Assembly (NCBI GenBank): GCA_045530935.1
Contig: JAZSDC010000032.1
Coordinates: forward strand, 1,223-65,222
Origin: Candidatus Enterousia sp.
GTDB taxonomy: Bacteria > Pseudomonadota > Alphaproteobacteria > Rs-D84
Direction of reading: 5' to 3'
Length of the DNA stretch: 64,000 nt
Positions 13,649 through 61,213 of the stretch are shown one piece after another. The notes beneath the pieces are model-generated. The model was not told the DNA's origin. It saw nothing but the letters and a program-made list of their open reading frames with translations, and did not search any database. Positions within the stretch are counted from its first letter, which is position 1. Every line of letters starts with the position of its first letter. The translations under genes and the position numbers were made by a program.

Positions 13649-14584
13649 TTCGCGTTCAGCTGTGGGTGCTGATATTGTGTTGTTGTTTTGTTTTTGTGGT
13701 TGATAATGGTTCTGGCATATGTTGTGTCTGCCTATGTATACGCGCATTTTTGATAAATCTATGCCGTATTCGTTTGATAGTTTTAGTAATAATTCATAAG
13801 TCTTGTTTGATGCGTCGCCTGAATACGCAGGGTCTTTGTGTGTAAATCTGGTGTCTTGTTTCCCAAGTAGATAGGCCATCATGCCAGTGGCATAATCGGG
13901 ATCTGCACTTGCGTGCGCGCGTGAAAAGTCGTGCGCCCATGTCGCAAGTTGTATAACTTTTTCTAACCACTCTTTTGGGCTGTCTGGATTATCTGGGCAT
14001 AGGTGTTCTATGCACATATTGAATATGTAGTCTGTAAATATTCTGGTTAATTCAATTTGTTGTATGGCACGTGTGTATTTTTCTGTGATTTGTTGTGCTT
14101 CGGTATCACAACCAATAAAGAGTTTAAGCTTGTCTTTTAGTAGCGTCATAGGCTTCTTGGTGTTGCCAGACATGGTGGTCATGGCCAGACGTCCCGCTAT
14201 TAATTCTGGACCGTCAATTTTTATTCGGGGGGCGATGTTTTTTAGCTTGTCGGATAGATCGTGCATACCAAATTCTTGTGATAAAGGTATACAAAAGTAT
14301 TGTATTATGACATACAGTAAATTATATCTGTCATAAATGTTTATTTCGGTTGGGGTGTTCGATTGGGGTAGTTTTGATAACTCGTATTTAAATTTTGATA
14401 TTATGGTTTGTATATGTTCTGGACTGATTATGGTTGATGCGGTTGGTGCAGAATGCATTGATTCTAGCTGTCTTATTTTTGTTTGCATGGCTGCTTTTTC
14501 TTGTTCTGCTGCGTGCAATTTAGCAGTTAATTCTGCAATTTGTGCTTCGTAATCAATTGTTTGTTTTTTGTTGAATATACCCAT
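13646..14584 (-). CDS. hypothetical protein with an N-terminal coiled coil
   Basis: 312-aa ORF with coding-like composition. No recognisable motif. Confidence 0.7.
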   Translation of the reverse strand: MGIFNKKQTIDYEAQIAELTAKLHAAEQEKAAMQTKIRQLESMHSAPTASTIISPEHIQTIISKFKYELSKLPQSNTPTEINIYDRYNLLYVIIQYFCIPLSQEFGMHDLSDKLKNIAPRIKIDGPELIAGRLAMTTMSGNTKKPMTLLKDKLKLFIGCDTEAQQITEKYTRAIQQIELTRIFTDYIFNMCIEHLCPDNPDSPKEWLEKVIQLATWAHDFSRAHASADPDYATGMMAYLLGKQDTRFTHKDPAYSGDASNKTYELLLKLSNEYGIDLSKMRVYIGRHNICQNHYQPQKQNNNTISAPTAERE

Positions 14585-18179: not shown

Positions 18180-18208
18180 ATGATAAATTCGCGAATCGGG
18201 TTTTAATA

Positions 18209-18217
18209 TGGTATAAT
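18209..18217 (+). promoter_or_regulatory. extended -10 (TGgTATAAT), second clpP promoter
   Basis: TGGTATAAT 28 nt upstream of the clpP ATG. Confidence 0.45.
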
Positions 18218-18244
18218 TTCACAGGTACTAAAAGGATTTTGATT

Positions 18245-18826
18245 ATGGCACTGATACCAATGGTTATAGAAGAATCACCACGTGGGGAACGTTCGTTTGA
18301 TATTTATTCTCGTTTGTTGCGTGATCGTATTATTATGGTTAATGGACAGATTGAGCCAACAATGGCAAACAGTATTGTCGCCCAGTTGTTGTTCTTGGAA
18401 TCTGAAAATCCGAACGCTGATATTTCAATGTATATCAACAGTCCGGGTGGTGATGTATCCGCAGGGTGGGCGATTATGGACACGATGCAGTATATCAAGG
18501 CGCCGGTTTCAACAATTGGTATGGGCTTGGTTGCATCGATGGGATCGGTGTTGTTGGCAGCTGGCGAAAAAGGAAAACGCTTTGTTTTGCCAAATACCCA
18601 GATTATGATTCATCAGCCTTTGGCCGGTGCACAGGGACAGATTACTGATATGGAAATTCAAATGACTCAGTATCAGAAAAATAAAAAGACCTTGATTAAG
18701 CAAATGTCTGAATTTACAGGTAAAAAAGAAAAAGAATTGTTTGATGCGATGGAACGTGATAATTGGATGTGTCCGCAAGAGGCCAAGGATTTTGGCCTGA
18801 TTGATGGTATCTTAGAACGTAAATAA
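18245..18826 (+). CDS. clpP: ATP-dependent Clp protease proteolytic subunit
   Basis: [30 protein letters not shown] (Ser), IMIHQP (His). Start placed at MALIPMV. Confidence 0.95.
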
Positions 18827-18851
18827 TTCATATGTTGTATGGGGAACAGAT

Positions 18852-20114
18852 ATGAGTGATGAAAAAACACCAAAAACAGAAAATAATAATCAGCAATTTT
18901 GCAGTTTCTGTGGCAAGGCAGTATATGAAGTAAAAAAACTGGTTAGTGGGCGTAATGTTTGTATTTGTGATGAATGTATAAATCTGTGTAATGATATTAT
19001 GGCAGATGATAATCGTCGCGAAGTTAGTCAGGATGCAAAAAAATTGCCAACGCCATCGCAGATTTATAATTTTCTGAATGAATATATTATTGGGCAAGAT
19101 GTTGCAAAGCGTACACTGGCAGTGGCGGTTTATAATCACTATAAACGTCATAATGTTGCAGTTGCGTCAAATGTCGAAATTCAAAAATCAAATGTTTTAT
19201 TGATTGGTTCGACGGGTACAGGTAAAACCTTGTTTGCGCAAACTTTGGCGCGAATATTGGATGTGCCATTTGCAATTGCTGATGCAACGACGTTGACCGA
19301 AGCAGGTTATGTTGGTGATGACGTGGAAAGTGTTTTGACGCGTTTGTTGCAAAATGCAAACTTTGATGTTGAACGTGCCGGACGTGGAATTATATATATT
19401 GATGAAATTGACAAGATTTCACGTAAGTCTGAAAATCCATCATTGACACGTGATGTGTCGGGCGAAGGTGTGCAACAGGCACTGTTGAAATTGATAGAGG
19501 GTACGGTTGCAAATGTGCCGGCAGGTGGTGCAGGGCGTAAACACCCAGGCGAAGCGACGGTTCAATTGGATACCAGTAAGATTTTGTTTATCTGCGGTGG
19601 TGCTTTTGATGGGTTGAATAAGATTATTGGAAATCGAACATGTGAAAGACGCGGTATTGGATTTGGTGCACATGTAGAATCTGCTGAAGAACGCAAAAAT
19701 AAGAATTTCTTGAAGGATGTGGAACCAGAAGATTTGGTAAAGTTTGGTATTATTCCAGAATTGATTGGTCGTTTGCCGGTAATTACAACGTTGCAAGAGT
19801 TGGATGAGGATGCATTGGTTAAAATATTGACAGAGCCCAAAAATGCAGTGGTTAAACAGTTTGCAGCAATGTTGGAAATGGATGGGGTAAAGTTAAATAT
19901 TACTGATACTGGTTTGCGTGAAATTGCAAAGATGGCGGTTGCGCGTAAGACAGGGGCGCGTGGATTGCGCAGTATCTTGGAACGCGTGTTGATGCAACCA
20001 ATGTTCGAAGCGCCAGATAAAGAAGATTTGGCCGAGATTGTTGTAGACGCAGATGTTGTTTTGGGGAATAAGGCGCCCATAGAGATTCAAAAAGAGAATA
20101 AGAAGGCTGCTTGA
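18852..20114 (+). CDS. clpX: ATP-dependent Clp protease ATP-binding subunit ClpX
   Basis: C4 zinc finger CSFCGK..CDECI, Walker [17 protein letters not shown] Walker B. Confidence 0.95.
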
Positions 20115-47707: not shown

Positions 47708-50488
47708 TTATTTAGTCCATTCTGTTCCATATGTTATAAATCCGCCTTCAATTTTTTCTATTTTAGGGCAACCGTAACCGTTGGATGTGGGGCATTCTAG
47801 GGTTGTATTATCTTTTTTATACGCGTATGTTATCTTGACATTATCTTTTCCAGTTGGATCGGTATATTGTTTATTGTCAATTAATACATATATACCCGCG
47901 CAATTAAATCCATTGTCTGTTTCGTCGACGGTGCCCATGCAAACCAATGATTGTTTATTGTCAGAATATATGACTGTTGGTTTAGTTGTGGTATTTGGTG
48001 GTACGCATATGGTAGATGGTGGGTTACTGCCATAAAGTATGCTGTTGGGTTGGCGTATATTATCTTTGATGCAACCGTAATTGGTTTTATTTAGTGGTTC
48101 GCATGAATATTCTTTTGAAGATTCTTTTGAATATTTTTTTTGGCAACAGTTGGTAACCCTATTTGAATTGTCGTCGGTACCTATAGTTAATTTTGTTCCT
48201 TTGTCTGAACGGCATATGATTCCGTCGTTGGTAATCAAGGAGTATGATTGGCATGAATTTGTTGTTGGATCGTTTAAAAAACCGGGCGGACATGTTGTGT
48301 CGCGACAATTGTCTGGTGCCTCGGCGGTTCCTGTGTTTTTTGCAAACCATTCCAATAATGTTTCATCTGCCGAAGATTGGGTTGTTAATATTTTGTTCGT
48401 TTCATTATCGTTTATCAGTAGTGTGTCTGGTTTAAATTCACAATTGCCCCAGATTTGTTCTGTTAAACGACAGATTTTTTGTTTGTCTTCTTTCTTTTTT
48501 TGTTTTTCTTCTGTCGTATCGTCTGTCGTATCGTCTGTCATATCGTCGCACCAGCTGTAAATATTGTCGTTATTGGTATATTGATTCAAAGGCTTGCTTA
48601 GGTTTGTGACGTCTGCAGGGAAAAATTTATTGATGTCACCGGCGCTTTCTATGCATTCTTGAACTTCGTTCCAGCATACGTTTCTGTTGATAATGGATTT
48701 ACGATTGGTTGATTTGTAAATGTTTTCGCACAGACCAAAGTTTCCAGCACTGGATGTGCAGGCGCGTACGATACAGTTTCGCCCAACCTCGCGACATGTT
48801 TTTAATACGGTATCAAATGTTATTTGTGTTGTTATTTGTTCAAATCCTTGGGCCCATTCGGATGTTTCTTCAGATGTTTCTGATGATACACTAAGCAGAT
48901 TTTCGCACGAGGTGCGCACATCTTTGCACATTTCATTTACAGTTTTATCAGCCAATATCCCAAAAATAGATATAGCGCGTGCGTCAAAATCAGAAATTGA
49001 ATCCATTGTTTTGTCCAGACATTGCGTTGTTAGTGTCGTGCATGATTGACGGATTTCTTCTAATTTGTCTTCTTGGGCCAGTTTTATTTGCGCCATCGCA
49101 TCTTCAAGAAATACATTCCATACATTGTCAGATATGTCTTGGCATTTTTCCATCGCAGGTTCTAAAAATTTCTTTTTATTGTTCAGGAAAGTTACAAATT
49201 TAGAATTTTCTGGGATGGTGGTCCATGATTGATCTGCATTGGGGCGTGTAATCAAGGTGCCCAGATTGGATAAATTAATTGACAGTATGGCGTCGCCAGT
49301 GGTTGGGTCGATATATTGACCTGTTGTATCCAGACATTTGCCCAGTTTGTCGCCGCACACTGTTGTGTCTGTTAACATATCCAGCATTTTTGATTTGCAT
49401 GTCAGGATATCATCTGAATTGCGTTGTTGGTGTATGTCAAGGCGCGACATGTCAAGCAATGCACCACTTTCATGTACTTTTGATTTTGCCTGGTTCATTT
49501 GCGTCTGGTATGATTTTTGTACTGTATTACAATCCTGTTCTATCATCATTTGATAGCCGCCTTCGGCTAGCTTTAAATCTTCGGGGCTGCAAACTTCCAG
49601 TGCCATTTCGCGACATACAGGCAGTGCAGCAGAATACAGTTCGGGACCGCTTTTTGTTGTTGTAGATGCACCGGCCAGCGAATCGATGTTGTCAAATGCG
49701 CTGTCTATATCCAGGTTTAAAGATATTGCATTAAGTTGGGTGTCAAAATTGCTGTTGTTAAAACTGGTATTTAATTTTTTTGCAATTTCATCCAGTGTCT
49801 TTTTTGAATCGGAACGATCTTTGATGTTAAATGCTAATTCGCCTTCGGTTGCTTGATTCAGTGCTGCGGCGTCTTCTTTATCCATGTTTACGGTCAGCAG
49901 GCGTTGGTTAAAATCTAAAAGTTTATCTTCGATATTTTCTAGTGTTTTTTTTGCGCTTTGGAATTCGTTTATGCGACTGGAACATGCGCAACGTTTTAGC
50001 TGGGCATCTTTGTTTGCACAAAATTCATCCATGCAGTTGTACAGTATTTCACGACATTTTTTATAGTCGCGTGATAACAGCGCAGCTTGTGCGGCTGTTG
50101 CAGTGCGTGAAATGGTTGAGTCGCCGTTGGGGGTGCGTCGTGTCGCGCTGCGAGTGGCGGTGGCGTTTTTTTTCACAATTGATGTTCGCTGTTGGGGGGT
50201 GATGGTTGGGGTGCGTTGCGCGGGGGTTACAGCTGTGCGGGTGCGAAACGCCGATTCGGTGTTGCGTGACGTTATGGTACGCGTCTGATTCGTTTTTGTT
50301 GCAGTGCGTGCCGTGGTTGCATTGCGTGTTGTTTTGTTGTTGGTGTTTTTTTTGCGATTCGTTGATGTGATAATACTGCCTTCTGGGCGTCTGGCGGTGC
50401 GGGATATGTTTGATGATGTGTCAGCCAACGTCGCATCCAGCCCAAGCAACGTAAAGCATGCAATTAAAGATAGTTTTATTCCCTTCAT
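47708..50488 (-). CDS. 926-aa secreted cysteine-rich protein with an N-terminal Thr/Arg-rich low-complexity region
   Basis: Signal peptide MKGIKLSLIACFTLLGLDATLA. ~130-aa T/R/N-rich segment, then more than 60 Cys. The ORF extends to 50554 but the ATG at 50488 gives the signal peptide. Confidence 0.85.
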   Translation of the reverse strand: MKGIKLSLIACFTLLGLDATLADTSSNISRTARRPEGSIITSTNRKKNTNNKTTRNATTARTATKTNQTRTITSRNTESAFRTRTAVTPAQRTPTITPQQRTSIVKKNATATRSATRRTPNGDSTISRTATAAQAALLSRDYKKCREILYNCMDEFCANKDAQLKRCACSSRINEFQSAKKTLENIEDKLLDFNQRLLTVNMDKEDAAALNQATEGELAFNIKDRSDSKKTLDEIAKKLNTSFNNSNFDTQLNAISLNLDIDSAFDNIDSLAGASTTTKSGPELYSAALPVCREMALEVCSPEDLKLAEGGYQMMIEQDCNTVQKSYQTQMNQAKSKVHESGALLDMSRLDIHQQRNSDDILTCKSKMLDMLTDTTVCGDKLGKCLDTTGQYIDPTTGDAILSINLSNLGTLITRPNADQSWTTIPENSKFVTFLNNKKKFLEPAMEKCQDISDNVWNVFLEDAMAQIKLAQEDKLEEIRQSCTTLTTQCLDKTMDSISDFDARAISIFGILADKTVNEMCKDVRTSCENLLSVSSETSEETSEWAQGFEQITTQITFDTVLKTCREVGRNCIVRACTSSAGNFGLCENIYKSTNRKSIINRNVCWNEVQECIESAGDINKFFPADVTNLSKPLNQYTNNDNIYSWCDDMTDDTTDDTTEEKQKKKEDKQKICRLTEQIWGNCEFKPDTLLINDNETNKILTTQSSADETLLEWFAKNTGTAEAPDNCRDTTCPPGFLNDPTTNSCQSYSLITNDGIICRSDKGTKLTIGTDDNSNRVTNCCQKKYSKESSKEYSCEPLNKTNYGCIKDNIRQPNSILYGSNPPSTICVPPNTTTKPTVIYSDNKQSLVCMGTVDETDNGFNCAGIYVLIDNKQYTDPTGKDNVKITYAYKKDNTTLECPTSNGYGCPKIEKIEGGFITYGTEWTK

Positions 50489-50616
50489 CCTTTGTAAGGT
50501 TATGTTAGCAAAATTATGAAAATGCGAGCAAGCAGAAAATATAGTAAAAATCATATTCTTTTCTGTGATTAAATGTGCGAATTTTACAGAATTTTATGAC
50601 GATTATTACTAATGTG

Positions 50617-50701
50617 TGGTGCGACCAGGGGGAATCGAACCCCCACGGGTTGCCCCACAGCATCCTTAGTGCTGTGCGTCTACCAGTTCCGCCATGGTCG
50701 C
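50617..50701 (-). tRNA. tRNA-Leu (anticodon AAG)
   Basis: 85-nt type II tRNA. Acceptor GCGACCA/TGGTCGC, anticodon stem CAGCA/TGCTG with loop CTAAGGA, T-arm GGGGG-TTCGATT-CCCCC, encoded CCA. Confidence 0.9.
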
Positions 50702-52997: not shown

Positions 52998-53855
52998 ATG
53001 AAAAAGGTATCGTTGTTTTTGTTGTGTGTTTTTTTGCCAGGGGTTGTGTCCGCAGAAGAAGCAGACGCAAAAAAGGATTTAGTTTTAAATATTCGTAGAA
53101 TTGGTTTGGAATGGTCCAAGACCAATGTCAGAAATTCTGCGGATTATCAGGATTCGCCTGTGTCTGCATTAAAGGCGGACAGCCAAGATTTTATAAAGGG
53201 TGTTTTTGATACGGCATTAGAATATAACAAGGATAGATTGCAGTGGGATAATGGCTTGTTTATGGAGTACGGTGAAACTACGTTGAAGCCGTATGATGAA
53301 CCAGAAACGGTCAGCGAAAATTCAGATGATATTTTGTTAAGCAGTAATTTGTCATATGATTGCTTTGAATTTGCGGGGATTAAGTTTGGTCCAACGGTGC
53401 GTGCGGCATATGATACAGAATTCAAGACTGCAGATACAACCCCACGTCAGAATATTGTTCGTGCAAATGCGGGTTTGTCGTTGTTTGATAATGCGATTAT
53501 CAAAAGTTTATATTTGACCGGTGTGTATGAATATGACTTTACATATTCAAATGAAAAGACCAGCAAACTGGCTGCAGAAATAGGTTGGCGTTTGGAATAT
53601 CAGGTGCGTGAAGGGGTGAAATTATCCACCAATGGTTATTATCGTGAATATTTAAGTTATTCAGAATATGTGTCAACAGACCTGGAACGTGATTTAAGTG
53701 CGGTTGTGCGTATGGATACAAATTTGTGGGGTGATTTGACGATGGGCCCATATGTGCAATATCGTCGTGCCCGCGCCCGTGGTGTTGATGTTTATGGCAG
53801 TAACTTTATCATGGGAATTTCGTTTAACTATATTACTTCGTTTGGTTTGAAGTAA
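52998..53855 (+). CDS. 285-aa secreted beta-rich (probable outer-membrane) protein
   Basis: Signal peptide ..GVVSA, alternating aromatic pattern. The C-terminal 130 aa are duplicated at 56385..56774. Confidence 0.8.
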   Translation: MKKVSLFLLCVFLPGVVSAEEADAKKDLVLNIRRIGLEWSKTNVRNSADYQDSPVSALKADSQDFIKGVFDTALEYNKDRLQWDNGLFMEYGETTLKPYDEPETVSENSDDILLSSNLSYDCFEFAGIKFGPTVRAAYDTEFKTADTTPRQNIVRANAGLSLFDNAIIKSLYLTGVYEYDFTYSNEKTSKLAAEIGWRLEYQVREGVKLSTNGYYREYLSYSEYVSTDLERDLSAVVRMDTNLWGDLTMGPYVQYRRARARGVDVYGSNFIMGISFNYITSFGLK

Positions 53856-53904
53856 TGGTTTTTATCAGTTCCTTTCTTGGTTGCCCCATGTGGGGCAATT
53901 TTTT
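53463..53904 (+). repeat. segmental duplication, copy 1 (3' third of 52998..53855 plus terminator)
   Basis: About 90% identical to 56385..56824, including the terminator ttgcccca-tg-tggggcaa. Confidence 0.9.
53881..53904 (+). terminator. rho-independent terminator
   Basis: ttgcccca-tg-tggggcaa plus T6. Confidence 0.8.
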
Positions 53905-53918
53905 GTGTGTGGTGTTCA

Positions 53919-54118
53919 GATAAATAAAAGTTTAGTTAACAAAAACGTTTTACGTTTTTGTCATTCTGGGGCTTGACCCCAGAACCCAGGTTATGCGCGT
54001 GAAACGTGCACAAATAATAAAGATTTTATTACCTGGGTCCCGGTGTCAAGCACCGGGATGACATAATTTTTTGTAAAAAATTCTGTTTATGTTTTCCTTA
54101 GATAAACTTTTATTTATC
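53919..54118. mobile_element. 200-bp MITE-like palindromic element with 16-bp perfect terminal inverted repeats and two REP-like hairpins
   Basis: gataaataaaagttta (53919..53934) is the exact reverse complement of taaacttttatttatc (54103..54118). Internal arms gtcattctggggcttgaccccagaacccagg and cctgggtcccggtgtcaagcaccgggatgac are inverted copies. Confidence 0.55.
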
Positions 54119-54125
54119 AAAGCAA

Positions 54126-54155
54126 TTGACATTTATTTTATGATTCTGATAAAAT
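54126..54155 (+). promoter_or_regulatory. sigma70-type promoter of the Cys-rich cassette
   Basis: TTGACA, 18-nt spacer, TAAAAT, immediately right of the MITE-like element. Confidence 0.5.
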
Positions 54156-54161
54156 ACCTGT

Positions 54162-54399
54162 GTCGTGATGTGTTATCACGATGAGGTGTCAAGACCTCGG
54201 TACAGGCGTGGAATACATACTTGTGGCGCATTTTTGTGCTTTTTTTTATGATTCCGTTGAAAAAAACTCCTGATCATTTTTGGTCAGGAGGGCTGTGAAT
54301 ATATTGAATAAGCACACAATTCCTGTAATTGTCTTGAACCTCCTGACCACTTGTTTAAAAACAGTGGTTTTTTATTTCGAAATGAAAGGGGGAATTTTT
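54162..54399 (+). promoter_or_regulatory. ~240-nt structured leader with mutually exclusive pairings
   Basis: ctcctgatc (54267..54275) and cctcctgacc (54339..54348) both pair with ggtcaggagg (54282..54291). A weak hairpin plus T-run follows at 54347..54374. Confidence 0.4.
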
Positions 54400-55737
54400 A
54401 TGAAAAATAAAATATTTGCAACCATTGGTGGGGCGGTTGCCGCGCTGTGTCCATGGGTGACACATGCAGAAACATTTCCGACCGACGGAAATATGTTGGA
54501 AAACAAAACATACGAATCGGCGGCAACATACAATAATTTGGGCACATATGCGGGGTCGGTCAGTGCCACTGCAGAATACGCAGACATATTGTACAATGTT
54601 GGTGCGGGGCAATACCTGCCCGCGGGCAGCGAAGGCGTTGGCGCGGTGTGTACCGCGGGAAATTACTGTCCGGGGTTGACGAATGCCACATACAGCGCAA
54701 CAGATAACCAGGGACTGACCGCGTGTCCAAACGGATATCCAAATTCGGATGCGGGGGCCAGCATGAACACACAATGCTATACCACATGTACAGACAAATC
54801 GGTAATCGCACATGCGACGGCGGTCGCCGGAAATGATTACTATGGCAACGGCACGGACACATGTTATCCAACCGCATGCGATAATGGTTATCACACATAT
54901 AATGGTATAGAAATGGTCGAATCGGATCCATTGGTTCCAGGCGCAAACCCCAGTTTAGCAGGTACAAGTTTTGGCTATATCAATCCGAACGGCGATAAGT
55001 CCCAAGAAGGTGTTTTTGGCCTGACAGAAAACGGCACCTGGGGGGTCGCATATTCATATGGTAATGTATATGGTCAGGCCAGTTGTCAGTCATCAATAAC
55101 CGAATCTGTGGCGGGAAAGGAGTCATATTCTGGGATGATGTTAGATGAATCTACAAAACCTGAGGCCGACGATGTTCGCACTGCGTTGGAAACGGCGGGT
55201 GTAGATTCGGCGGCGGTTGATTCAGTTGTTGACATGCATGAAAAATATCTGGCTGGGGAAATTGATTTTGAGGAAGCGTATAAGACCGCGTTTGCCATAT
55301 TGGGCAGTGAATATGACGCAGATTTCAGCACAACCGCTTCGGGCCGATATTGTTTTTGTCAGATGACGGCATATAGTGCCAGTGGTTCCAGTGAGCTGAT
55401 ACCAGTCACATCGGCCCCCTGGGTCTTCATGAGCGACCTCAGCTCGAAGTTCGGTTGCGGGATCTCCTGCGCGTACGACTGTGCGCTCTGCATGCAGAAC
55501 GACGGCGCGTACGATCGCGCCTTCCGTGCTGCGGTGTTGGGGTCGCTTGGCACGCGGACGGTTGGTGTTTGCGCGGCAAACGAAATCAGTATTACGTGGG
55601 CGGACGCGGATCCGGCAGATGTTGCGGAAAATAACGCGGGCGTATGTACGTATGATGGCGACATCCGCACCCCGGTCAAGGCCATCACAAAGCCAGGTAA
55701 GACATTCAAGGGATGGAAATTTAACAAAGTGAATTAA
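54400..55737 (+). CDS. 445-aa secreted cysteine-rich protein with CP.G(Y) repeats and one C-terminal Listeria-Bacteroides-type repeat
   Basis: AAGGGGG SD 8 nt upstream. Signal peptide MKNKIFATIGGAVAALCPWVTHA. NYCPG..GLTACPNGYP, and C-terminal KPGKTFKGWKF. Confidence 0.8.
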   Translation: MKNKIFATIGGAVAALCPWVTHAETFPTDGNMLENKTYESAATYNNLGTYAGSVSATAEYADILYNVGAGQYLPAGSEGVGAVCTAGNYCPGLTNATYSATDNQGLTACPNGYPNSDAGASMNTQCYTTCTDKSVIAHATAVAGNDYYGNGTDTCYPTACDNGYHTYNGIEMVESDPLVPGANPSLAGTSFGYINPNGDKSQEGVFGLTENGTWGVAYSYGNVYGQASCQSSITESVAGKESYSGMMLDESTKPEADDVRTALETAGVDSAAVDSVVDMHEKYLAGEIDFEEAYKTAFAILGSEYDADFSTTASGRYCFCQMTAYSASGSSELIPVTSAPWVFMSDLSSKFGCGISCAYDCALCMQNDGAYDRAFRAAVLGSLGTRTVGVCAANEISITWADADPADVAENNAGVCTYDGDIRTPVKAITKPGKTFKGWKFNKVN

Positions 55738-55749
55738 ACATCCAAACGA

Positions 55750-56334
55750 ATGAAAAAGGCGTATGTTTTTTCAATCGCATTATCAGTATCGGCGAATTGT
55801 TTCGCCGATACTGATTTGTCTTTTTTGGCGCCAAACACTGTTATTCCAAATGCGTGTGTGTATAACAATACCGGGGTCTATTCAGATGAATTTGAAATGA
55901 TTCCAATCTGGGAAGATACCATATACACATGCGAACGCGGGTATTTCCTGCCTAAATTGTCTGAGGTTTGCGCACATTGCCCTGAAAATTCGTATTGTCC
56001 GGGTGGCAAATACACATATTCCGAAACGGCGGACACAGGCCTGAACGCATGCCCCGATGGAATGGTTGCGCCCGATGGTATGTGGGAACTGGCGCAATGT
56101 GGACGAAAATTCCATGTCGGCGATGGTTTTTTATATTTACGCACAGCGAAACAGACCGCACATGCGTTGCATTTTGATGTCAATGGTGACGGTATTGCAG
56201 ATTTCTTTGCCAATTTAAGTACAACAGATGTGGCGATTAGTAAGGATTCAACGCGCCGGATGAAGGTGCGAATGAATGACACAATTTATTTTGTTCACGA
56301 TGACACCGTGGATGTGTCAGCGGGGACAGAGTAA
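55750..56334 (+). CDS. 194-aa secreted cysteine-rich protein (CP.NSYCPGG / ACPDG motifs)
   Basis: Signal peptide MKKAYVFSIALSVSANCFA. Shares the Cys motif with 54400..55737. Confidence 0.8.
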   Translation: MKKAYVFSIALSVSANCFADTDLSFLAPNTVIPNACVYNNTGVYSDEFEMIPIWEDTIYTCERGYFLPKLSEVCAHCPENSYCPGGKYTYSETADTGLNACPDGMVAPDGMWELAQCGRKFHVGDGFLYLRTAKQTAHALHFDVNGDGIADFFANLSTTDVAISKDSTRRMKVRMNDTIYFVHDDTVDVSAGTE

Positions 56335-56375
56335 GTGGTTAGTGGTTAGTGTAAGTGGCCAGTGTCGGAAAAATC

Positions 56376-56398
56376 GTCATTCCCGCGAATGCGGGTAT
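56376..56398. repeat. REP-like hairpin gtcattcccgcgaatgcgggtat at the right cassette junction
   Basis: cccgc-gaat-gcggg stem-loop with the GTCATTC flank. Translates to the VIPANAGI string typical of such elements. Confidence 0.7.
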
Positions 56399-56774
56399 TT
56401 CGCTGTTTGATAATGCGATTGTTAAAAGTTTGTATTTAACCGGGGTGCATGAATATGATTTTACATATTCTGAAACAATCAGTAAACTGGCAGCAGAATT
56501 GGGTTGGCGTTTGGAATATCAGGTTCGTGAAGGGGTGAAATTATCCACCAATGGTTATTATCGTGAATATTTAAGTTATTCAGAATATGTGTCAACAGAC
56601 CTGGAACGTGATTTTAGTGCGGTTTTGCGTCTGGATACTAATTTATGGGGGGATTTGACGATGGGGCCATATGTTCAGTATCGCCGTGCCCGCGCGCGTG
56701 GTGCAGATGTGTATGGCAGTAATTTAATCATGGGGATTTCATTTAATTACATAACTTCGTTTGGTTTGAAGTAA
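56385..56774 (+). pseudogene. 5'-truncated duplicate of the C-terminal third of 52998..53855
   Basis: About 90% nt identity to 53463..53855. No signal peptide or N-terminal two thirds. The ORF-track start at 56355 lies in junction sequence. Confidence 0.7.
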
Positions 56775-56798
56775 TGGTTTTTATCAGTTCCTTTCTTG

Positions 56799-56824
56799 GT
56801 TGCCCCATGTGGGGCAATTTTTTT
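56799..56824 (+). terminator. duplicated rho-independent terminator
   Basis: Same ttgcccca-tg-tggggcaa plus T7 as at 53881. Confidence 0.8.
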
Positions 56825-56959
56825 GCCATCAAATGAAAGCGCCAGGAAAGAATGGGCGGTTTTTATATTTGCAATATTTTGTGAAAAAAGTTAGGATATT
56901 TAATGTGTCAGAATAATGTTTTAGTATTAAATACATAAATTCGATTAATCGGAGAGGGT

Positions 56960-57886
56960 ATGAAATTATTGATTATTTCATTTTTGCTTTGTATTCTGGG
57001 GTTTGATTGCAATGCTAAAATTGATAATCGTAAATATGCGGATTGGGGCGCCTATCCATATAATATGTTTGTATTGGTTAATTACAGTGGTACAGGTCAA
57101 TATGTTGCGCCCGATTTAATTTTGACCAGTTTGCATCTTGTTGATCAGACGTGCTATGATTCCGAATTGGATTATATTAATCAGCGTGGTTGCGATTTGT
57201 TGGATTCGTTGGAGCGTGAATACAAAGGGGATGTTGTTGCAGTTGGCAGACCATATTCTATTATGTCTGGTAAGCCTTTTGATGGTACAGGGTATTTGCC
57301 GTCGGATGATTGGGCGTTAATTCGGGTCAGGGATCCAAAATTTTTTCGTTATGATTATTTTAATGTATTGCCCCAGGCAAAAACTGGGAATGTGAATAAT
57401 GCGGGATTCGGTGCGATGCGTATCGTAACAGATGCAGAACTGAAAATCATACGCAAGAAATTTATCAGATTGGTGCGAGAAAGGTATCCTGTGAATGATA
57501 ATGATGATGTTGTCTTGAAAAGGATTCCTTTTACAGATTTTATTAGAGATTTGGATGATGCTTTGGGACAAGATGACGAAGATGGCCAAGCAATGGAACC
57601 GTTGTTTCAAGATGGGGATAAATTAAAATTCTCGAGATGCAGCATAGAAGATGTCGAAAATGGCTATTTCTATCACAGGTGTATGGGCGCACATGGTAAT
57701 TCGGGTGGCGCATTTTGGAGTGGTGATAATGATTTACATGGAATTTTAGCAACAGGGGCAGATTCATTTGATAAAAAAATAATGAAGCAAGGCAGTGGTG
57801 TAGATAGTAAATCTTTTTATGATGCCTTGATGCAGGCGATGATTTTATCAGAAGATAAAGAATTATCCACGTTGGACGTGGATTAA
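56960..57886 (+). CDS. secreted trypsin-like (S1) serine peptidase
   Basis: Signal peptide. His context LILTSLHLV, Asp context DDWALIRV, Ser context GAHGNSGGAFW. Confidence 0.75.
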   Translation: MKLLIISFLLCILGFDCNAKIDNRKYADWGAYPYNMFVLVNYSGTGQYVAPDLILTSLHLVDQTCYDSELDYINQRGCDLLDSLEREYKGDVVAVGRPYSIMSGKPFDGTGYLPSDDWALIRVRDPKFFRYDYFNVLPQAKTGNVNNAGFGAMRIVTDAELKIIRKKFIRLVRERYPVNDNDDVVLKRIPFTDFIRDLDDALGQDDEDGQAMEPLFQDGDKLKFSRCSIEDVENGYFYHRCMGAHGNSGGAFWSGDNDLHGILATGADSFDKKIMKQGSGVDSKSFYDALMQAMILSEDKELSTLDVD

Positions 57887-58241
57887 TAAAAAATGCACCG
57901 GCGGCGGGGCATTCGTTAGTGCGCGAACTGCGTTGGGGGTGTTCTGGCGTACTTATTGTCGAACCCTGGGTTCAAATATCCACGTTGCACGTGGATTAAT
58001 AAAAAATACCACACAAGGTGGTATTTTCTATTAATTCTGGCGCATCCAGAAGGATTGTTTAATTCCCATCACTGGCGTGATGGGCCCCTTTTCCCCGCGT
58101 AAGGTTCGAACATCGTTGGCACTCGTTCTCACCAACTATCGGGTCGAACCCTGGGTTCAAATATCCACGTTGGACGTGGATTAATAAAAAATACCACACA
58201 AGGTGGTATTTTCTATTAATTCTGGCGCATCCAGAAGGATT
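57865..58241 (-). repeat. tRNA-Arg-linked repeat array (elements E2/E3)
   Basis: Three copies of the 30-bp hairpin module atccacgttg(g/c)acgtggattaataaaaaat (57865, 57978, 58163). A 99-bp direct repeat 57958..58056 = 58143..58241 (1 mismatch) contains the tRNA-Arg terminator and 19 nt of its 3' end. Confidence 0.85.
58185..58209 (-). terminator. rho-independent terminator of tRNA-Arg (duplicated at 58000..58024)
   Basis: Minus strand: ataccac-cttgt-gtggtat plus T6. Confidence 0.8.
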
Positions 58242-58299
58242 CGAACCCTCAGTCTTCTGATCCGTAGTCAGATGCTTTATCCAGTTAAGCTATGGATGC
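58223..58299 (-). tRNA. tRNA-Arg (anticodon ACG)
   Basis: 77-nt cloverleaf. Acceptor GCATCCA/TGGATGC, anticodon loop CTACGGA, T-loop GTTCGAA, encoded CCA. Confidence 0.95.
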
Positions 58300-59992: not shown

Positions 59993-61213
59993 ATGAACAA
60001 GAAAGGAATTGTTTTTTTATTGTTGGGTGTAACGTGTTCGGTGTCGGCGGCGCCCGAAGGCGCATTAATGCGCAGCGCGAAAAGTTTGTTGCGTCCACAA
60101 AAATTTCCAAAAGTGTTCAAAGATTTGCCTTTCCATGAACGTGTTGCCATAAAAGACGAAGGGTACGAGAACTATGATAGCGAATTTGATAAAAATGGAA
60201 TTTGTATTTCTGGGTGTGCATATCCAGGAATGACAATTGAAGAAGAAAAAAAAATTATTGCCCAGGCAACCCAGGAGTTTTATGAGGCTATAGAACAAAA
60301 TGGCGGGTTGGGTGATCGAATCCCAGGTGCTGGTTCGCCAGGTGGTTCGCCAGGTGGTTCGCCAGGTGGTTTGCCAGGTGGTTCACCAGGTGGTTCACCA
60401 GGTGGTTCGCCAGGTGGTTCGCCAGGTGGTTCGCCAGGTGGTTCGCCAGGTGGTTCGCCAGGTGGTTCGCCAGGTGGTTCACCAGGTGGTTCGCCAGGTG
60501 GTTCGCCGGGTGGTTCGCCAGGTGGTTCACCAGGTGGTTCACCAGGTGGTTCGCCAGGTGGTTCACCAGGTGGTTTGCCAGGTGGTTCGCCAGGTGGTTC
60601 GTTGGGTGGTAATGATAGGTGTCCTAAAGCAATTAGAGGTGTTGTTCCACCATTAAAAAGAGACTTGATTGTTGTATCTGATTTTGGATATAGAGATGTC
60701 ACCAGTGGTTCAAAAAATCATAAGGGGATTGATTTGCGGGCTGGGATAGGAACGCGGGTTTACGCGGCGGCGGCTGGGACGCTTTATTGTAATAGCGAGC
60801 TTAGAAGTGGAGGTGGAGGCTATTATGCGGAAGTGCACCATGGATTGCTGAATGAGAAAACTGTTAAAACAAAATATCTACATTTGAAGGCGGACTCTTG
60901 CAAGTGTACAAACTCTGCAGGCTGTTCTGTTGTGAAGGGGCAACAAATTGCGTTGTCTGGAAATACGCCCAGTGTGACCCCGCATCTGGATTATAGGGTT
61001 TTTTATGGTGGTGTAGCAATAGATCCATTGGGGTCGAAAGTGGCACCGTATTATATAGATAATGGTGTGTTTAGGCAATGGCCTGCCCAGCCCAATGTTT
61101 TTCTGTCGGCGCCGTATAAAATTAAGCGAGGGCTTACCAGTAAGCGTGTAAAAGGTAAAACAGAAGAACAGTTGATACAAGATTTCCCGTGTTGTTCAGG
61201 ATATTCTAATTAA
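59993..61213 (+). CDS. M23 (LytM) peptidase with a (GGSP)n linker
   Basis: Signal peptide, ~23 GG(S/L)P repeats, HKGIDLRAG and HLDYRV M23 motifs. Confidence 0.85.
   Translation: MNKKGIVFLLLGVTCSVSAAPEGALMRSAKSLLRPQKFPKVFKDLPFHERVAIKDEGYENYDSEFDKNGICISGCAYPGMTIEEEKKIIAQATQEFYEAIEQNGGLGDRIPGAGSPGGSPGGSPGGLPGGSPGGSPGGSPGGSPGGSPGGSPGGSPGGSPGGSPGGSPGGSPGGSPGGSPGGSPGGSPGGSPGGLPGGSPGGSLGGNDRCPKAIRGVVPPLKRDLIVVSDFGYRDVTSGSKNHKGIDLRAGIGTRVYAAAAGTLYCNSELRSGGGGYYAEVHHGLLNEKTVKTKYLHLKADSCKCTNSAGCSVVKGQQIALSGNTPSVTPHLDYRVFYGGVAIDPLGSKVAPYYIDNGVFRQWPAQPNVFLSAPYKIKRGLTSKRVKGKTEEQLIQDFPCCSGYSN
60326..60610 (+). repeat. 12-nt tandem repeat (ggtggttcgcca), about 23 copies, in frame
   Basis: Read directly. 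Variants are tcg/tca/ttg at the third codon of the unit. Confidence 0.95.

Follow-up and report, generated by a model that had tools for sequence, protein, structure and literature searches.

The window analysed here is a stretch of 64,000 nucleotides from Candidatus Enterousia, a gut bacterium of the order Rs-D84 (Alphaproteobacteria) with a genome of about 0.9 Mb. Members of Enterousia have genomes of less than 1 Mb and lack both the tricarboxylic acid cycle and respiratory chains (PMC12306168). We studied a locus of this window at which the 3′ third of a gene for an outer-membrane protein (OMP) of the DUF3078 family occurs twice, the two copies (B1 and B2) enclosing a cassette with the genes of two secreted cysteine-rich proteins, Cys445 and Cys194. 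Throughout the text, L-numbers designate loci of relatives, P-numbers homologous proteins and X-numbers sequencing runs with Logan contigs. The features of the locus, in positions of the window, are the following:

52998..53855, plus strand: gene of the DUF3078 outer-membrane protein, 285 aa, apparently chimeric (Pfam DUF3078, E=2e-06)
53458..53904, plus strand: repeat copy B1, the OMP 3′ third with its terminator (hairpin 53879-53900; repeat search, alignment)
53919..54118, no strand assigned: palindromic element like a miniature inverted-repeat transposable element (MITE), 200 nt, with 28-nt terminal inverted repeats that are 86% complementary (repeat search)
54126..54155, plus strand: sigma-70-type promoter, TTGACA, 18 nt, TAAAAT, with the TG of an extended −10 (11/12 matches)
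54160..54375, plus strand: conserved structured leader RNA, about 215 nt (covariation, 20 homologues)
54400..55737, plus strand: Cys445, secreted Cys-rich protein of 445 aa with 17 Cys and a signal-peptide-like N-terminus (open reading frame, ORF; target of a diversity-generating retroelement, DGR)
55411..55551, plus strand: variable region (VR) of the DGR target, Cys445 residues 338-384 (80% identical to the template repeat at L002 13677-13824)
55750..56334, plus strand: Cys194, secreted Cys-rich protein of 194 aa with 8 Cys and a signal-peptide-like N-terminus (ORF)
56376..56398, plus strand: hairpin like a repetitive extragenic palindrome (REP), GTCATTCCCGCGAATGCGGGTAT, unique in the window; the right joint lies inside its right arm
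56380..56824, plus strand: repeat copy B2, promoterless OMP 3′ third with terminator (56798-56819; repeat search, alignment)
56960..57886, plus strand: gene of a secreted trypsin-like serine protease, 308 aa, with a GNSGG motif (Pfam Trypsin_2 and Trypsin, both sub-threshold)

The direct repeat measures 447 bp and its copies are 90.9% identical over about 442 nt, which is far beyond chance. The repeat search resolved it into two segments, 53458-53548/56380-56470 (86%) and 53552-53851/56471-56770 (90%), between which the B1-to-B2 spacing shifts from 2922 to 2919, equal to a single 3-nt indel. In the alignment, the identity runs past the stop codon and the terminator hairpin up to 53904 and 56824, and the last 75 nt are the same in both copies. 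B2 covers OMP residues 153-285 only, the 5′ two thirds being absent (tblastn); its ORF (56355..56774) has 139 aa and no signal peptide. Scans of the B2 protein against Pfam and NCBIfam gave nothing significant, and a scan of metagenome contigs with a B2-specific 32-mer gave no match. A preliminary description of this DNA had reported the OMP 3′ third and its terminator twice at about 90% identity with one 3-nt indel, a second copy deprived of the N-terminal two thirds and of the signal peptide, and, between the copies, a palindrome, a promoter and leader, a pair of genes for secreted Cys-rich proteins and a REP-like hairpin; all of these were recovered here.

A protein search returned 1162 homologues of the DUF3078 OMP, all from gut Alphaproteobacteria or Ca. 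Enterousia, and an exact look-up of the window protein gave no record. The locus set built on this protein comprises 80 related species, all uncultured gut Alphaproteobacteria and mostly named Candidatus Enterousia; the copy number of the OMP was determined by tblastn against 93 loci. A block formed by a Pom-like OMP, a 204-aa gene and the DUF3078 OMP, accompanied in most species by Cys948 (minus strand), is present in all 80 species (tblastn map), and the sequel varies. Since its content is not the same across species, the interval from the OMP to tRNA-Arg/thymidine kinase is a recombination hotspot. For instance, the OMP is followed by a 100-aa gene and then DUF1919 in L004-L007, directly by thymidine kinase in L047 and L048, and directly by the trypsin-like gene in L001. 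The Cys445-Cys194 pair stands directly after the OMP in L002/L003, L008, L009, L010, L020, and L070; its presence there in at least six related species makes the position old in the clade, though the window copy itself would be imported (see below). The trypsin-like protease was found outside the window in L001 only, again directly after the OMP, and is the resident OMP neighbour in the window lineage. A scan of metagenome contigs with the protease protein returned no relatives, and the protease, DUF1919 and the 100-aa gene had no hit in PADLOC.

These comparisons bear on how the preliminary description had classed the stretch, namely as an accessory island. The insert is absent from L004-L007, L047, L048 and the 99%-identical L001, which supports the view that these 2.5 kb are accessory and horizontally exchanged. 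The same text had asked whether relatives continue from the OMP directly into the trypsin-like gene or into a full-length paralog: the former arrangement occurs in L001, the latter in 0/80 species. Likewise, the scenario that it had named as contrary to an island, a full-length tandem paralog in relatives together with the same genes, lacks its paralog in the 80 species.

Comparison with L002 reveals a composite OMP gene. The window differs from L002 at 81 of 330 positions (24.5%) in 52998-53327, and at 14 of 577 (2.4%) in 53328-53904; the sliding identity rises from 85-87% to 96-98% at about 53400. B1 is 97.1-97.2% identical to L002 as compared to the 85-90% expected from other species pairs; indeed, in pairs whose OMP 5′ parts are about 78-85% identical, the B part reaches 84-91%, not 97%. 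A similar closeness is found in Cys194 and in the 3′ end of Cys445, with 93-98% nucleotide identity to L002/L009, while the flanking core genes reach merely 65-87%. For these same parts of Cys194 and Cys445, L002 and L008 show only 62-84% identity despite their closer relationship in the OMP 5′ part. At about 53328, 130 nt ahead of the repeat, the L002-like tract sets in, and 53328-53457 contains a single mismatch to L002. As to B2, it is 90% identical to the L002 OMP end in the window and 85% in the version of L088; this divergence is the expected orthologous level, so B2 fits the resident copy. One Logan contig consists of 94 nt matching the OMP upstream of B1 (to 53422), a divergent stretch of 40 nt, and then sequence 97% like B2. 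The identity tracts are direct observations, as are the repeat and the junction sequences. Judged from sequence, the tract 53328..56398 appears to be of L002/L009 type, and everything around it the lineage's own.

The two ends of this tract are of different kinds. The left boundary, at 53328-53440 within the OMP gene, falls where donor and recipient can be aligned, and has the appearance of a homologous crossover. At the right joint, the right arm of the REP-like hairpin (56388-56396) and the OMP gene (53466-53474) have 9 nt (AATGCGGGT) in common. The part homologous to L002 goes as far as GCGGGTAT, and the part homologous to the OMP sets in with GCGAATGCGGGT; the similarity to L002 ends inside the hairpin at 56398, beyond which L002 reads on with GCGGGTATGACGG and the window reads on as OMP sequence. 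These sequences point to an illegitimate, microhomology-based joint. Thus, the two marks of homology-facilitated illegitimate recombination, a homologous anchor on one side and a microhomology joint on the other, are both found at the locus. Target duplication of the transposon type is not involved. The preliminary description, which had considered an insertion with duplication of the target, came close insofar as the incoming DNA would have carried an OMP 3′ part of its own; the transposon-type mechanism does not stand.

Past the hairpin, L002 and L003 contain a 148-nt segment (13677-13824), an ORF of 117 aa and a reverse transcriptase (RT) of 363 aa. The segment is a template repeat (TR) for the variable region of Cys445, whose 3′ 36 nt are the same as the template, resembling an initiation-of-mutagenic-homing sequence. 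Between the window VR and the L002 TR there are 28 mismatches, 19 on TR adenines and 9 on other bases. In L010, comparison of the TR (13892-14034; 31 A in 148 nt) with the locus's own VR gave 24 mismatches, of which 21 fall on adenines, and over 8 VRs the mismatch frequency is 0.59 at A as compared to 0.12-0.29 at the other bases. A TR/VR pair that differs at template adenines, as in DGRs, is therefore present, and we take the adenine signature in the relatives as observed. The L002 template segment encodes SAPWVFQNDNFSADNCANNCANNCANNMQNDNANYRAFRAAVLGSLG; in the family alignment there is no majority residue at the Asn, Asp and Gln codons of the TR and at a few neighbours, and the Cys and Ala residues between them are conserved. 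The RT of L002 (14403-15494) matches RVT_1 (Pfam) and the PADLOC RT (4e-39) and contains the motifs IGNLTSQ and YCDD. Complete sets of TR, 117-aa ORF and 363-aa RT lie by the OMP hotspot in L002 (13677-15494), L003 (same positions) and L010 (13892-15632), while L084 (14629-15509, minus strand) has the small ORF and a template-like stretch, the RT not being found in the fetched DNA.

An RT beside the TR is thus found in relatives and not in the window, in all 64 kb of which tblastn and blastn detected no RT, small ORF or TR. What the window carries is accordingly a DGR target and not a DGR. Cys445 paralogs with leader and variable region exist at unrelated loci, L091 9601-11194 (after UvrD) and L092 3845-5476 (beside EF-Ts); the paralogs of L091 and L092 have no adjacent reverse transcriptase, which suggests that one retroelement serves several targets. 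In the AlphaFold model of Cys445 the VR falls in predicted helices (350-366 and 370-379) with a predicted local distance difference test score (pLDDT) above 90 around it, and the segment displays an invariant C-A-x-x-C-A-x-x-C ladder.

We propose, with a probability of roughly 60%, that the window layout is a recombinant of two Ca. Enterousia hotspot haplotypes, produced by an import with one microhomology joint. The resident haplotype would have had the OMP directly followed by the secreted trypsin-like protease, and that of the sister species group (L002/L009) the OMP, Cys445, Cys194, the REP hairpin, the template repeat, the small ORF and the reverse transcriptase. About 3.07 kb (53328..56398) of the L002/L009-type haplotype would have been spliced into the resident locus by a homologous crossover inside the OMP on the left and, on the right, by joining at the chance-shared 9 nt AATGCGGGT, as in homology-facilitated illegitimate recombination. 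Since an OMP 3′ part came in with the imported DNA, the OMP would have remained intact as a chimera. The resident 3′ third, B2, would have been stranded behind the insert without a promoter, and its terminator would now close the cassette. Furthermore, the illegitimate joint would have severed the retroelement between the target genes and the template, leaving a presumably inactive DGR, with a window VR that would no longer change, save through a retroelement acting in trans from another place in the genome. We infer the direction of the recombination and its single-step nature; import of the cassette into an OMP-protease chromosome requires one event, and import of B2 and protease into a cassette chromosome two.

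The two OMP copies seem to have exchanged sequence afterwards. The window B2 equals B1 at alignment columns 140-256 and 396-465, and the L088 B2 equals B1 at columns 300-360, a distribution that indicates repeated gene conversion between B1 and B2 after the event. In addition, a two-site patch of the window B1 (53582, 53585) agrees with the L088 B2, hinting at exchange from B2 to B1 as well. The cassette may also have been lost again: L001, 99% identical to the window over 2.76 kb, reads OMP(B1)-protease without the cassette, and in run X1 a contig leading into the protease gene shows the B1 type of bases at 56711-56753. The L001 form looks as if the cassette had popped out through recombination within the final 75 nt that B1 and B2 share without a difference.

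Several points weigh against the proposed import. The final sequence is identical whether the cassette entered an OMP-protease chromosome or B2 and the protease entered a cassette haplotype, and from it the two cannot be told apart. The stretch 53917-54370, with promoter, leader and MITE-like element, has no counterpart in L002, L009 and L008, and the leader and the 5′ part of Cys445 resemble non-syntenic paralogs (L091 87%, L092 84%), so the insert is itself mosaic and more than one event may lie behind it. Moreover, the donor is not sampled, the nearest Cys445 among 5.8 billion proteins being 84% identical. L001 is a metagenomic scaffold of 3.7 kb, in which an assembler jump at the 75-nt identity could mimic a pop-out. 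On the side of the retroelement, the L002 TR and its own VR show many non-adenine differences in the 5′ third; the 117-aa ORF, directly upstream of the RT in L002, L003 and L010 and thus in the usual position of Avd, has no Pfam or PADLOC match; and no C-type-lectin match, as expected for display on a lectin fold, was obtained for the VR domain with Foldseek (whole-protein model against PDB and BFVD) or with a PDB profile.

The mirror image of the proposed event has the cassette haplotype as the resident, into which B2 and the protease were imported with a homology anchor at the terminator/tRNA-Arg module and an illegitimate REP joint that deleted TR, avd and RT. It leads to the same final structure, and features of the right flank speak for it: positions 57958-58056 are 99% identical to L002 16666-16764, the hairpins at 57861, 57974, and 58159 suggest repeated recombination, a Logan contig of X3 joins 56365 straight to 57959, and the protease gene was seen in the window lineage only. 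However, it needs an extra earlier event to place the L002-like tract 53328..56398 in a background of 65-87%, the right end of that tract must coincide with the later illegitimate joint, and the divergence of B2 is what is expected for the lineage's own OMP end; we therefore regard it as rather unlikely. Far smaller is the chance of a Campbell-type integration, in which a circle with the OMP 3′ third and the cassette entered by a single homologous crossover in the OMP 3′ third. Such a crossover does yield direct repeats around an insert, but it predicts a donor-like 5′ part of the right copy, and in B2 the resemblance to L002 is lowest in the first 110 nt from the 5′ end. Nor would a circle starting with the repeat yield the donor-like tract, which reaches about 130 nt beyond the repeat boundary on the upstream side (53328-53457, 1 mismatch to L002). 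Taken together, the start of the tract and the 5′ part of B2 exclude integration of a circle by a single crossover.

Less probable still is an old tandem duplication of the OMP, in which the downstream copy later lost its 5′ two thirds to the cassette and what was left of it decayed, as the preliminary description had suggested in its alternative of a cassette that replaced the 5′ part of a tandem paralog. B2 is in keeping with this idea, being 9% diverged from B1 at the protein level and devoid of promoter and signal peptide. Yet a second OMP copy occurs in 0/80 related species and at none of the 93 loci (tblastn), apart from the B2 fragments of the window and L088. Furthermore, the distinctive residues of B2 (AGIS, AIVK, GVHEY, VLRLD) reappear in functional OMPs of other lineages (P0122-P0126), so they do not reflect random decay; the B2 ORF is intact in two strains; and the L002-like tract is left unexplained. 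At the bottom of the scale we place an artefact in which the assembler joined two strain variants of the OMP 3′ end, a concern because the source is a metagenome-assembled genome and several Enterousia strains coexist in samples. The 9-14 nt shared at the joint are too short for a k-mer join, and the same joint recurs independently. L088 (ENA ERZ27316922), from another sample and assembly, spans 55646..56872 end to end at 95.8%; a Logan contig of run X2 crosses from the cassette into B2; and the 139-aa B2 ORF with the same junction is found in L088 and in the 3-member protein cluster P0121. In the stretch leading into B1, Logan contigs of X3 and X5 match the window without difference from 53329/53330 to 53546/53560. 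The cassette-to-B2 joint is not an assembly artefact.

The proposed import has parallels in known systems. Homology-facilitated illegitimate recombination is known from the transformation of Acinetobacter baylyi, Pseudomonas stutzeri and Streptococcus pneumoniae. As in these cases, the window has a homologous anchor (the OMP) at one end and a G+C-rich microhomology of 9 nt, beside a hairpin, at the other, and has gained a few kb of non-homologous DNA. Unlike them, the event is deduced from natural sequence instead of being observed, the donor would be a congener, the incoming DNA would contain an allelic copy of the anchor, and the outcome is a 447-bp direct repeat instead of a simple insertion-deletion. 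Silent partial copies of surface-protein genes that serve in gene conversion are represented by the msp2/p44 pseudogenes of Anaplasma and by pilS of Neisseria. B2 resembles them as a promoterless, 5′-truncated OMP copy near the expressed gene, with patchy exchange in two strains; it differs in being the only copy, in representing the most conserved part of the OMP and not a hypervariable loop, and in that the clearest patches run from the expressed copy to the fragment. The short OMP-like proteins P0122-P0138 had been considered as extra silent cassettes and were dropped: L090 is an ordinary OMP locus with a frameshift and L089 a 995-nt contig beginning inside the gene, and those beyond L089/L090 were judged from sequence alone.

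DGRs are exemplified by Mtd of the Bordetella phage BPP-1, TvpA of Treponema and LdtA of Legionella, and are abundant in the reduced genomes of the candidate phyla radiation and DPANN. The relatives L002, L003 and L010 share with them a TR/VR pair of about 145 nt with adenine-focused differences and an AAC-rich TR, an RT with IGxxxSQ and YxDD motifs, and a small ORF just upstream of the RT; similarly, a secreted protein bears the VR close to its C-terminus, the 3′ end of the VR does not vary, and paralogous targets exist at remote loci. The window departs from known DGRs in having the target half only, TR, small ORF and RT having apparently been lost at the recombination joint. Further differences are the placement of the VR on a predicted helical Cys ladder without a lectin match, the small ORF without an Avd-family match, and the RNA leader on the target. 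The mechanisms are of known kinds; what is new is the leader RNA, together with a variable protein that has been orphaned and is apparently not a lectin.

The locus shows a route by which the surface is reshuffled in Enterousia, a bacterium that, with its genome of less than 1 Mb, is presumably dependent on partners. The conserved OMP gene would act as a homologous handle for the import of a cassette from a sister species, and the 447-bp direct repeat left by the import would make the cassette losable again. It thus represents a clean natural case of one-sided homologous recombination with a microhomology joint. In addition, the orphaned DGR target offers a natural test for service in trans, and the shared structured leader a handle on the regulation of secreted proteins in uncultured bacteria.

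The two proteins of the cassette are related to each other: residues 29-104 of Cys194 and 35-112 of Cys445 are 40% identical, corresponding to a shared N-terminal Cys-rich module. Downstream of the OMP, Cys194 is always paired with Cys445 (L002, L008, L009, L010, L020, and L070). The identity along the Cys445 gene is mosaic, with hypervariable stretches, a consequence of the diversity-generating retroelement. Pfam and NCBIfam gave nothing significant for either protein. The AF2 model of Cys445 has a pLDDT of 81; with the whole-protein model, Foldseek retrieved nothing from PDB and BFVD at E<=0.001, the best hit being the Cys-rich domain of EphA2 (E=0.07), and a sequence-profile search against PDB gave no match up to E=1. 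This suggests a Cys-rich region like that of Eph receptors, although the fold match is non-significant; for the central domain no known fold relatives were found by Foldseek in PDB and BFVD. The C-terminal end resembles the Flg_new (Listeria-Bacteroides) repeat, which is significant in relatives and reaches E=0.17 in the window Cys445. The single-sequence AF2 model of Cys194 (pLDDT 31) was unusable. Cys445 is the variable protein of a DGR, either surface-exposed or secreted, and probably binds a ligand.

The G+C content at third codon positions of Cys445 (0.52) is above that of its neighbours (0.33-0.37). We rejected the raised G+C as a sign of foreign or distant origin, since it is a family trait, with values of 0.50-0.54 in 6/7 loci and 0.40 in L070. 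At 55782-55815, 45 nt past the Cys445 stop and in the part of Cys194 that codes for the signal peptide, the 15-bp arms ATCAGTATCGGCGAA/TTCGCCGATACTGAT form a perfect inverted repeat with a T-rich run behind it; this repeat could attenuate transcription between the two genes.

The promoter upstream of Cys445 is the best sigma-70-like site of the region and is kept in the leader copies of L004 and L092. The leader, 245 nt from the promoter to Cys445, contains a 5′ hairpin, a long-range helix (GGGGUGUCAAG/CUUGAACCUCC), a CAGG/CCUG pseudoknot, a hairpin formed by CUCCUGAUC and GGUCAGGAG, and an internal loop of conserved sequence. An intrinsic terminator (54345-54369) followed by a U-run is kept in 20/20 sequences, and the leader ends 25 nt before the start codon. 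The alignment of 20 homologues supports six helices including the pseudoknot, with 42 pairs and 92.6% of cells paired, as compared to 79% in shuffles and 33-53% with slid partners. Double changes occur at 21 pairs and none of 500 shuffles reaches the observed values; RNAalifold was also run, and the single-sequence fold has a z of −5.2. The covariation of the leader is an observed result. A further segment, GGUCAGGAGG, can pair either upstream with CUCCUGAUC or downstream with CCUCCUGACC, which overlaps the terminator stem; this second pairing is 90% paired with one compensatory position, and both partners covary in half of the sequences.

The position in the 5′ untranslated region, the covariation and the presence of an expression platform together conform to the structure of a riboswitch or attenuator. 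The leader is thus probably a new attenuator-type or riboswitch-like switch, which would operate through mutually exclusive pairing of GGUCAGGAGG. Like known attenuators and riboswitches, it has its own promoter, a multi-helix pseudoknot fold with covariation and a conserved internal loop, an intrinsic terminator just before the ribosome-binding site, and one segment with two exclusive partners. Unlike riboswitches, it belongs to no Rfam family (no match for the window and four other loci) and precedes unrelated secreted-protein genes instead of one metabolic pathway. Alternatively, it could be a stand-alone small RNA. None of the RNA-seq runs searched for the cassette or leader sequence holds it. 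The idea of a leader peptide was dropped, as the reading frames differ among homologues.

Searching 1.5 Mb of Enterousia loci with nhmmer returned 28 leader copies, about 20 of which have a signal-peptide-like ORF less than 200 nt downstream. The depth of Logan contigs over the leader stretch is about 10 times that of the flanks. The syntenic genes of L002, L009 and L008 lack the 270 nt that precede Cys445; sequences 78-92% identical to these stand upstream of the L091 and L092 paralogs and of an unrelated secreted protein of L004. The latter (18203-19225, 340 aa) contains no Cys and shares the leader at 88.5%; being placed before a protein unrelated to Cys445, the leader is a portable module and not part of one gene family. 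Tentatively, and with doubts that outweigh our confidence, we suggest that the leader defines a new class of cis-regulatory RNA, either a riboswitch or an antitermination target, that subjects dispersed secreted surface proteins, often Cys-rich and partly DGR-diversified, to one signal, and that the Cys445 VR is a non-lectin, helical Cys-ladder DGR scaffold.

The palindromic element to the left of the promoter folds as DNA with −51.5 kcal/mol (z −9.45). Copies are present in L020 (93%) and also in L010, L031, L028, L011, and L035. On both strands the Rfam family WsnRNA46 scores below threshold, with 49 bits where the gathering score is 65, and no flanking direct repeat is visible at 53915-53918/54119-54122. 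With about 200 nt, a near-perfect palindrome, several copies and intergenic positions, it is like the palindromic repeats of Rickettsiales (the Rickettsia palindromic element, RPE, and Wolbachia repeats including the WsnRNA46 locus), from which it differs by its score under the Rfam threshold and by the target-site duplication not being seen. Members of the REP-like hairpin family are present in the spacers between OMP and Cys445 of L002, L009, L010, and L020.

The hotspot has, at its right edge, three copies of a hairpin module that resembles a terminator, ATCCACGTNGNACGTGGATTAATAAAAAAT (57861, 57974, and 58159; region 57861-58299), and a direct repeat of 99 nt (57958-58056/58143-58241) whose copies are 99% identical. 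A second copy of the tRNA-Arg 3′ end lies within this region (58223-58299, minus strand). The 99-nt repeat (57958-58056) is 99% identical to L002 16666-16764, the adjoining thymidine kinase being just 78% identical; the repeat may be a trace of recurrent recombination or integration at this edge. On the left, a protein of 948 aa with 40 Cys (47708-50554, minus strand) adjoins tRNA-Leu (50617-50701) and is oriented divergently from the OMP operon. Most of the 80 species have this protein close by the operon, at 43-67% identity, with no match in the DNA available for about a dozen loci and another strand or position in a few; its neighbour in L002 has Ephrin_rec_like repeats. Farther downstream, the gene of an M23 peptidase (59993-61213) contains about 20 tandem GSPGG repeats (about 60310-60610), which account for the local G+C of 0.50-0.54. 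Finally, the GC skew is above 0 in every 2-kb bin of the window 1-64000 (0.06-0.34), independently of gene orientation, consistent with the whole window lying on the leading strand of one replichore in a strongly skewed genome.

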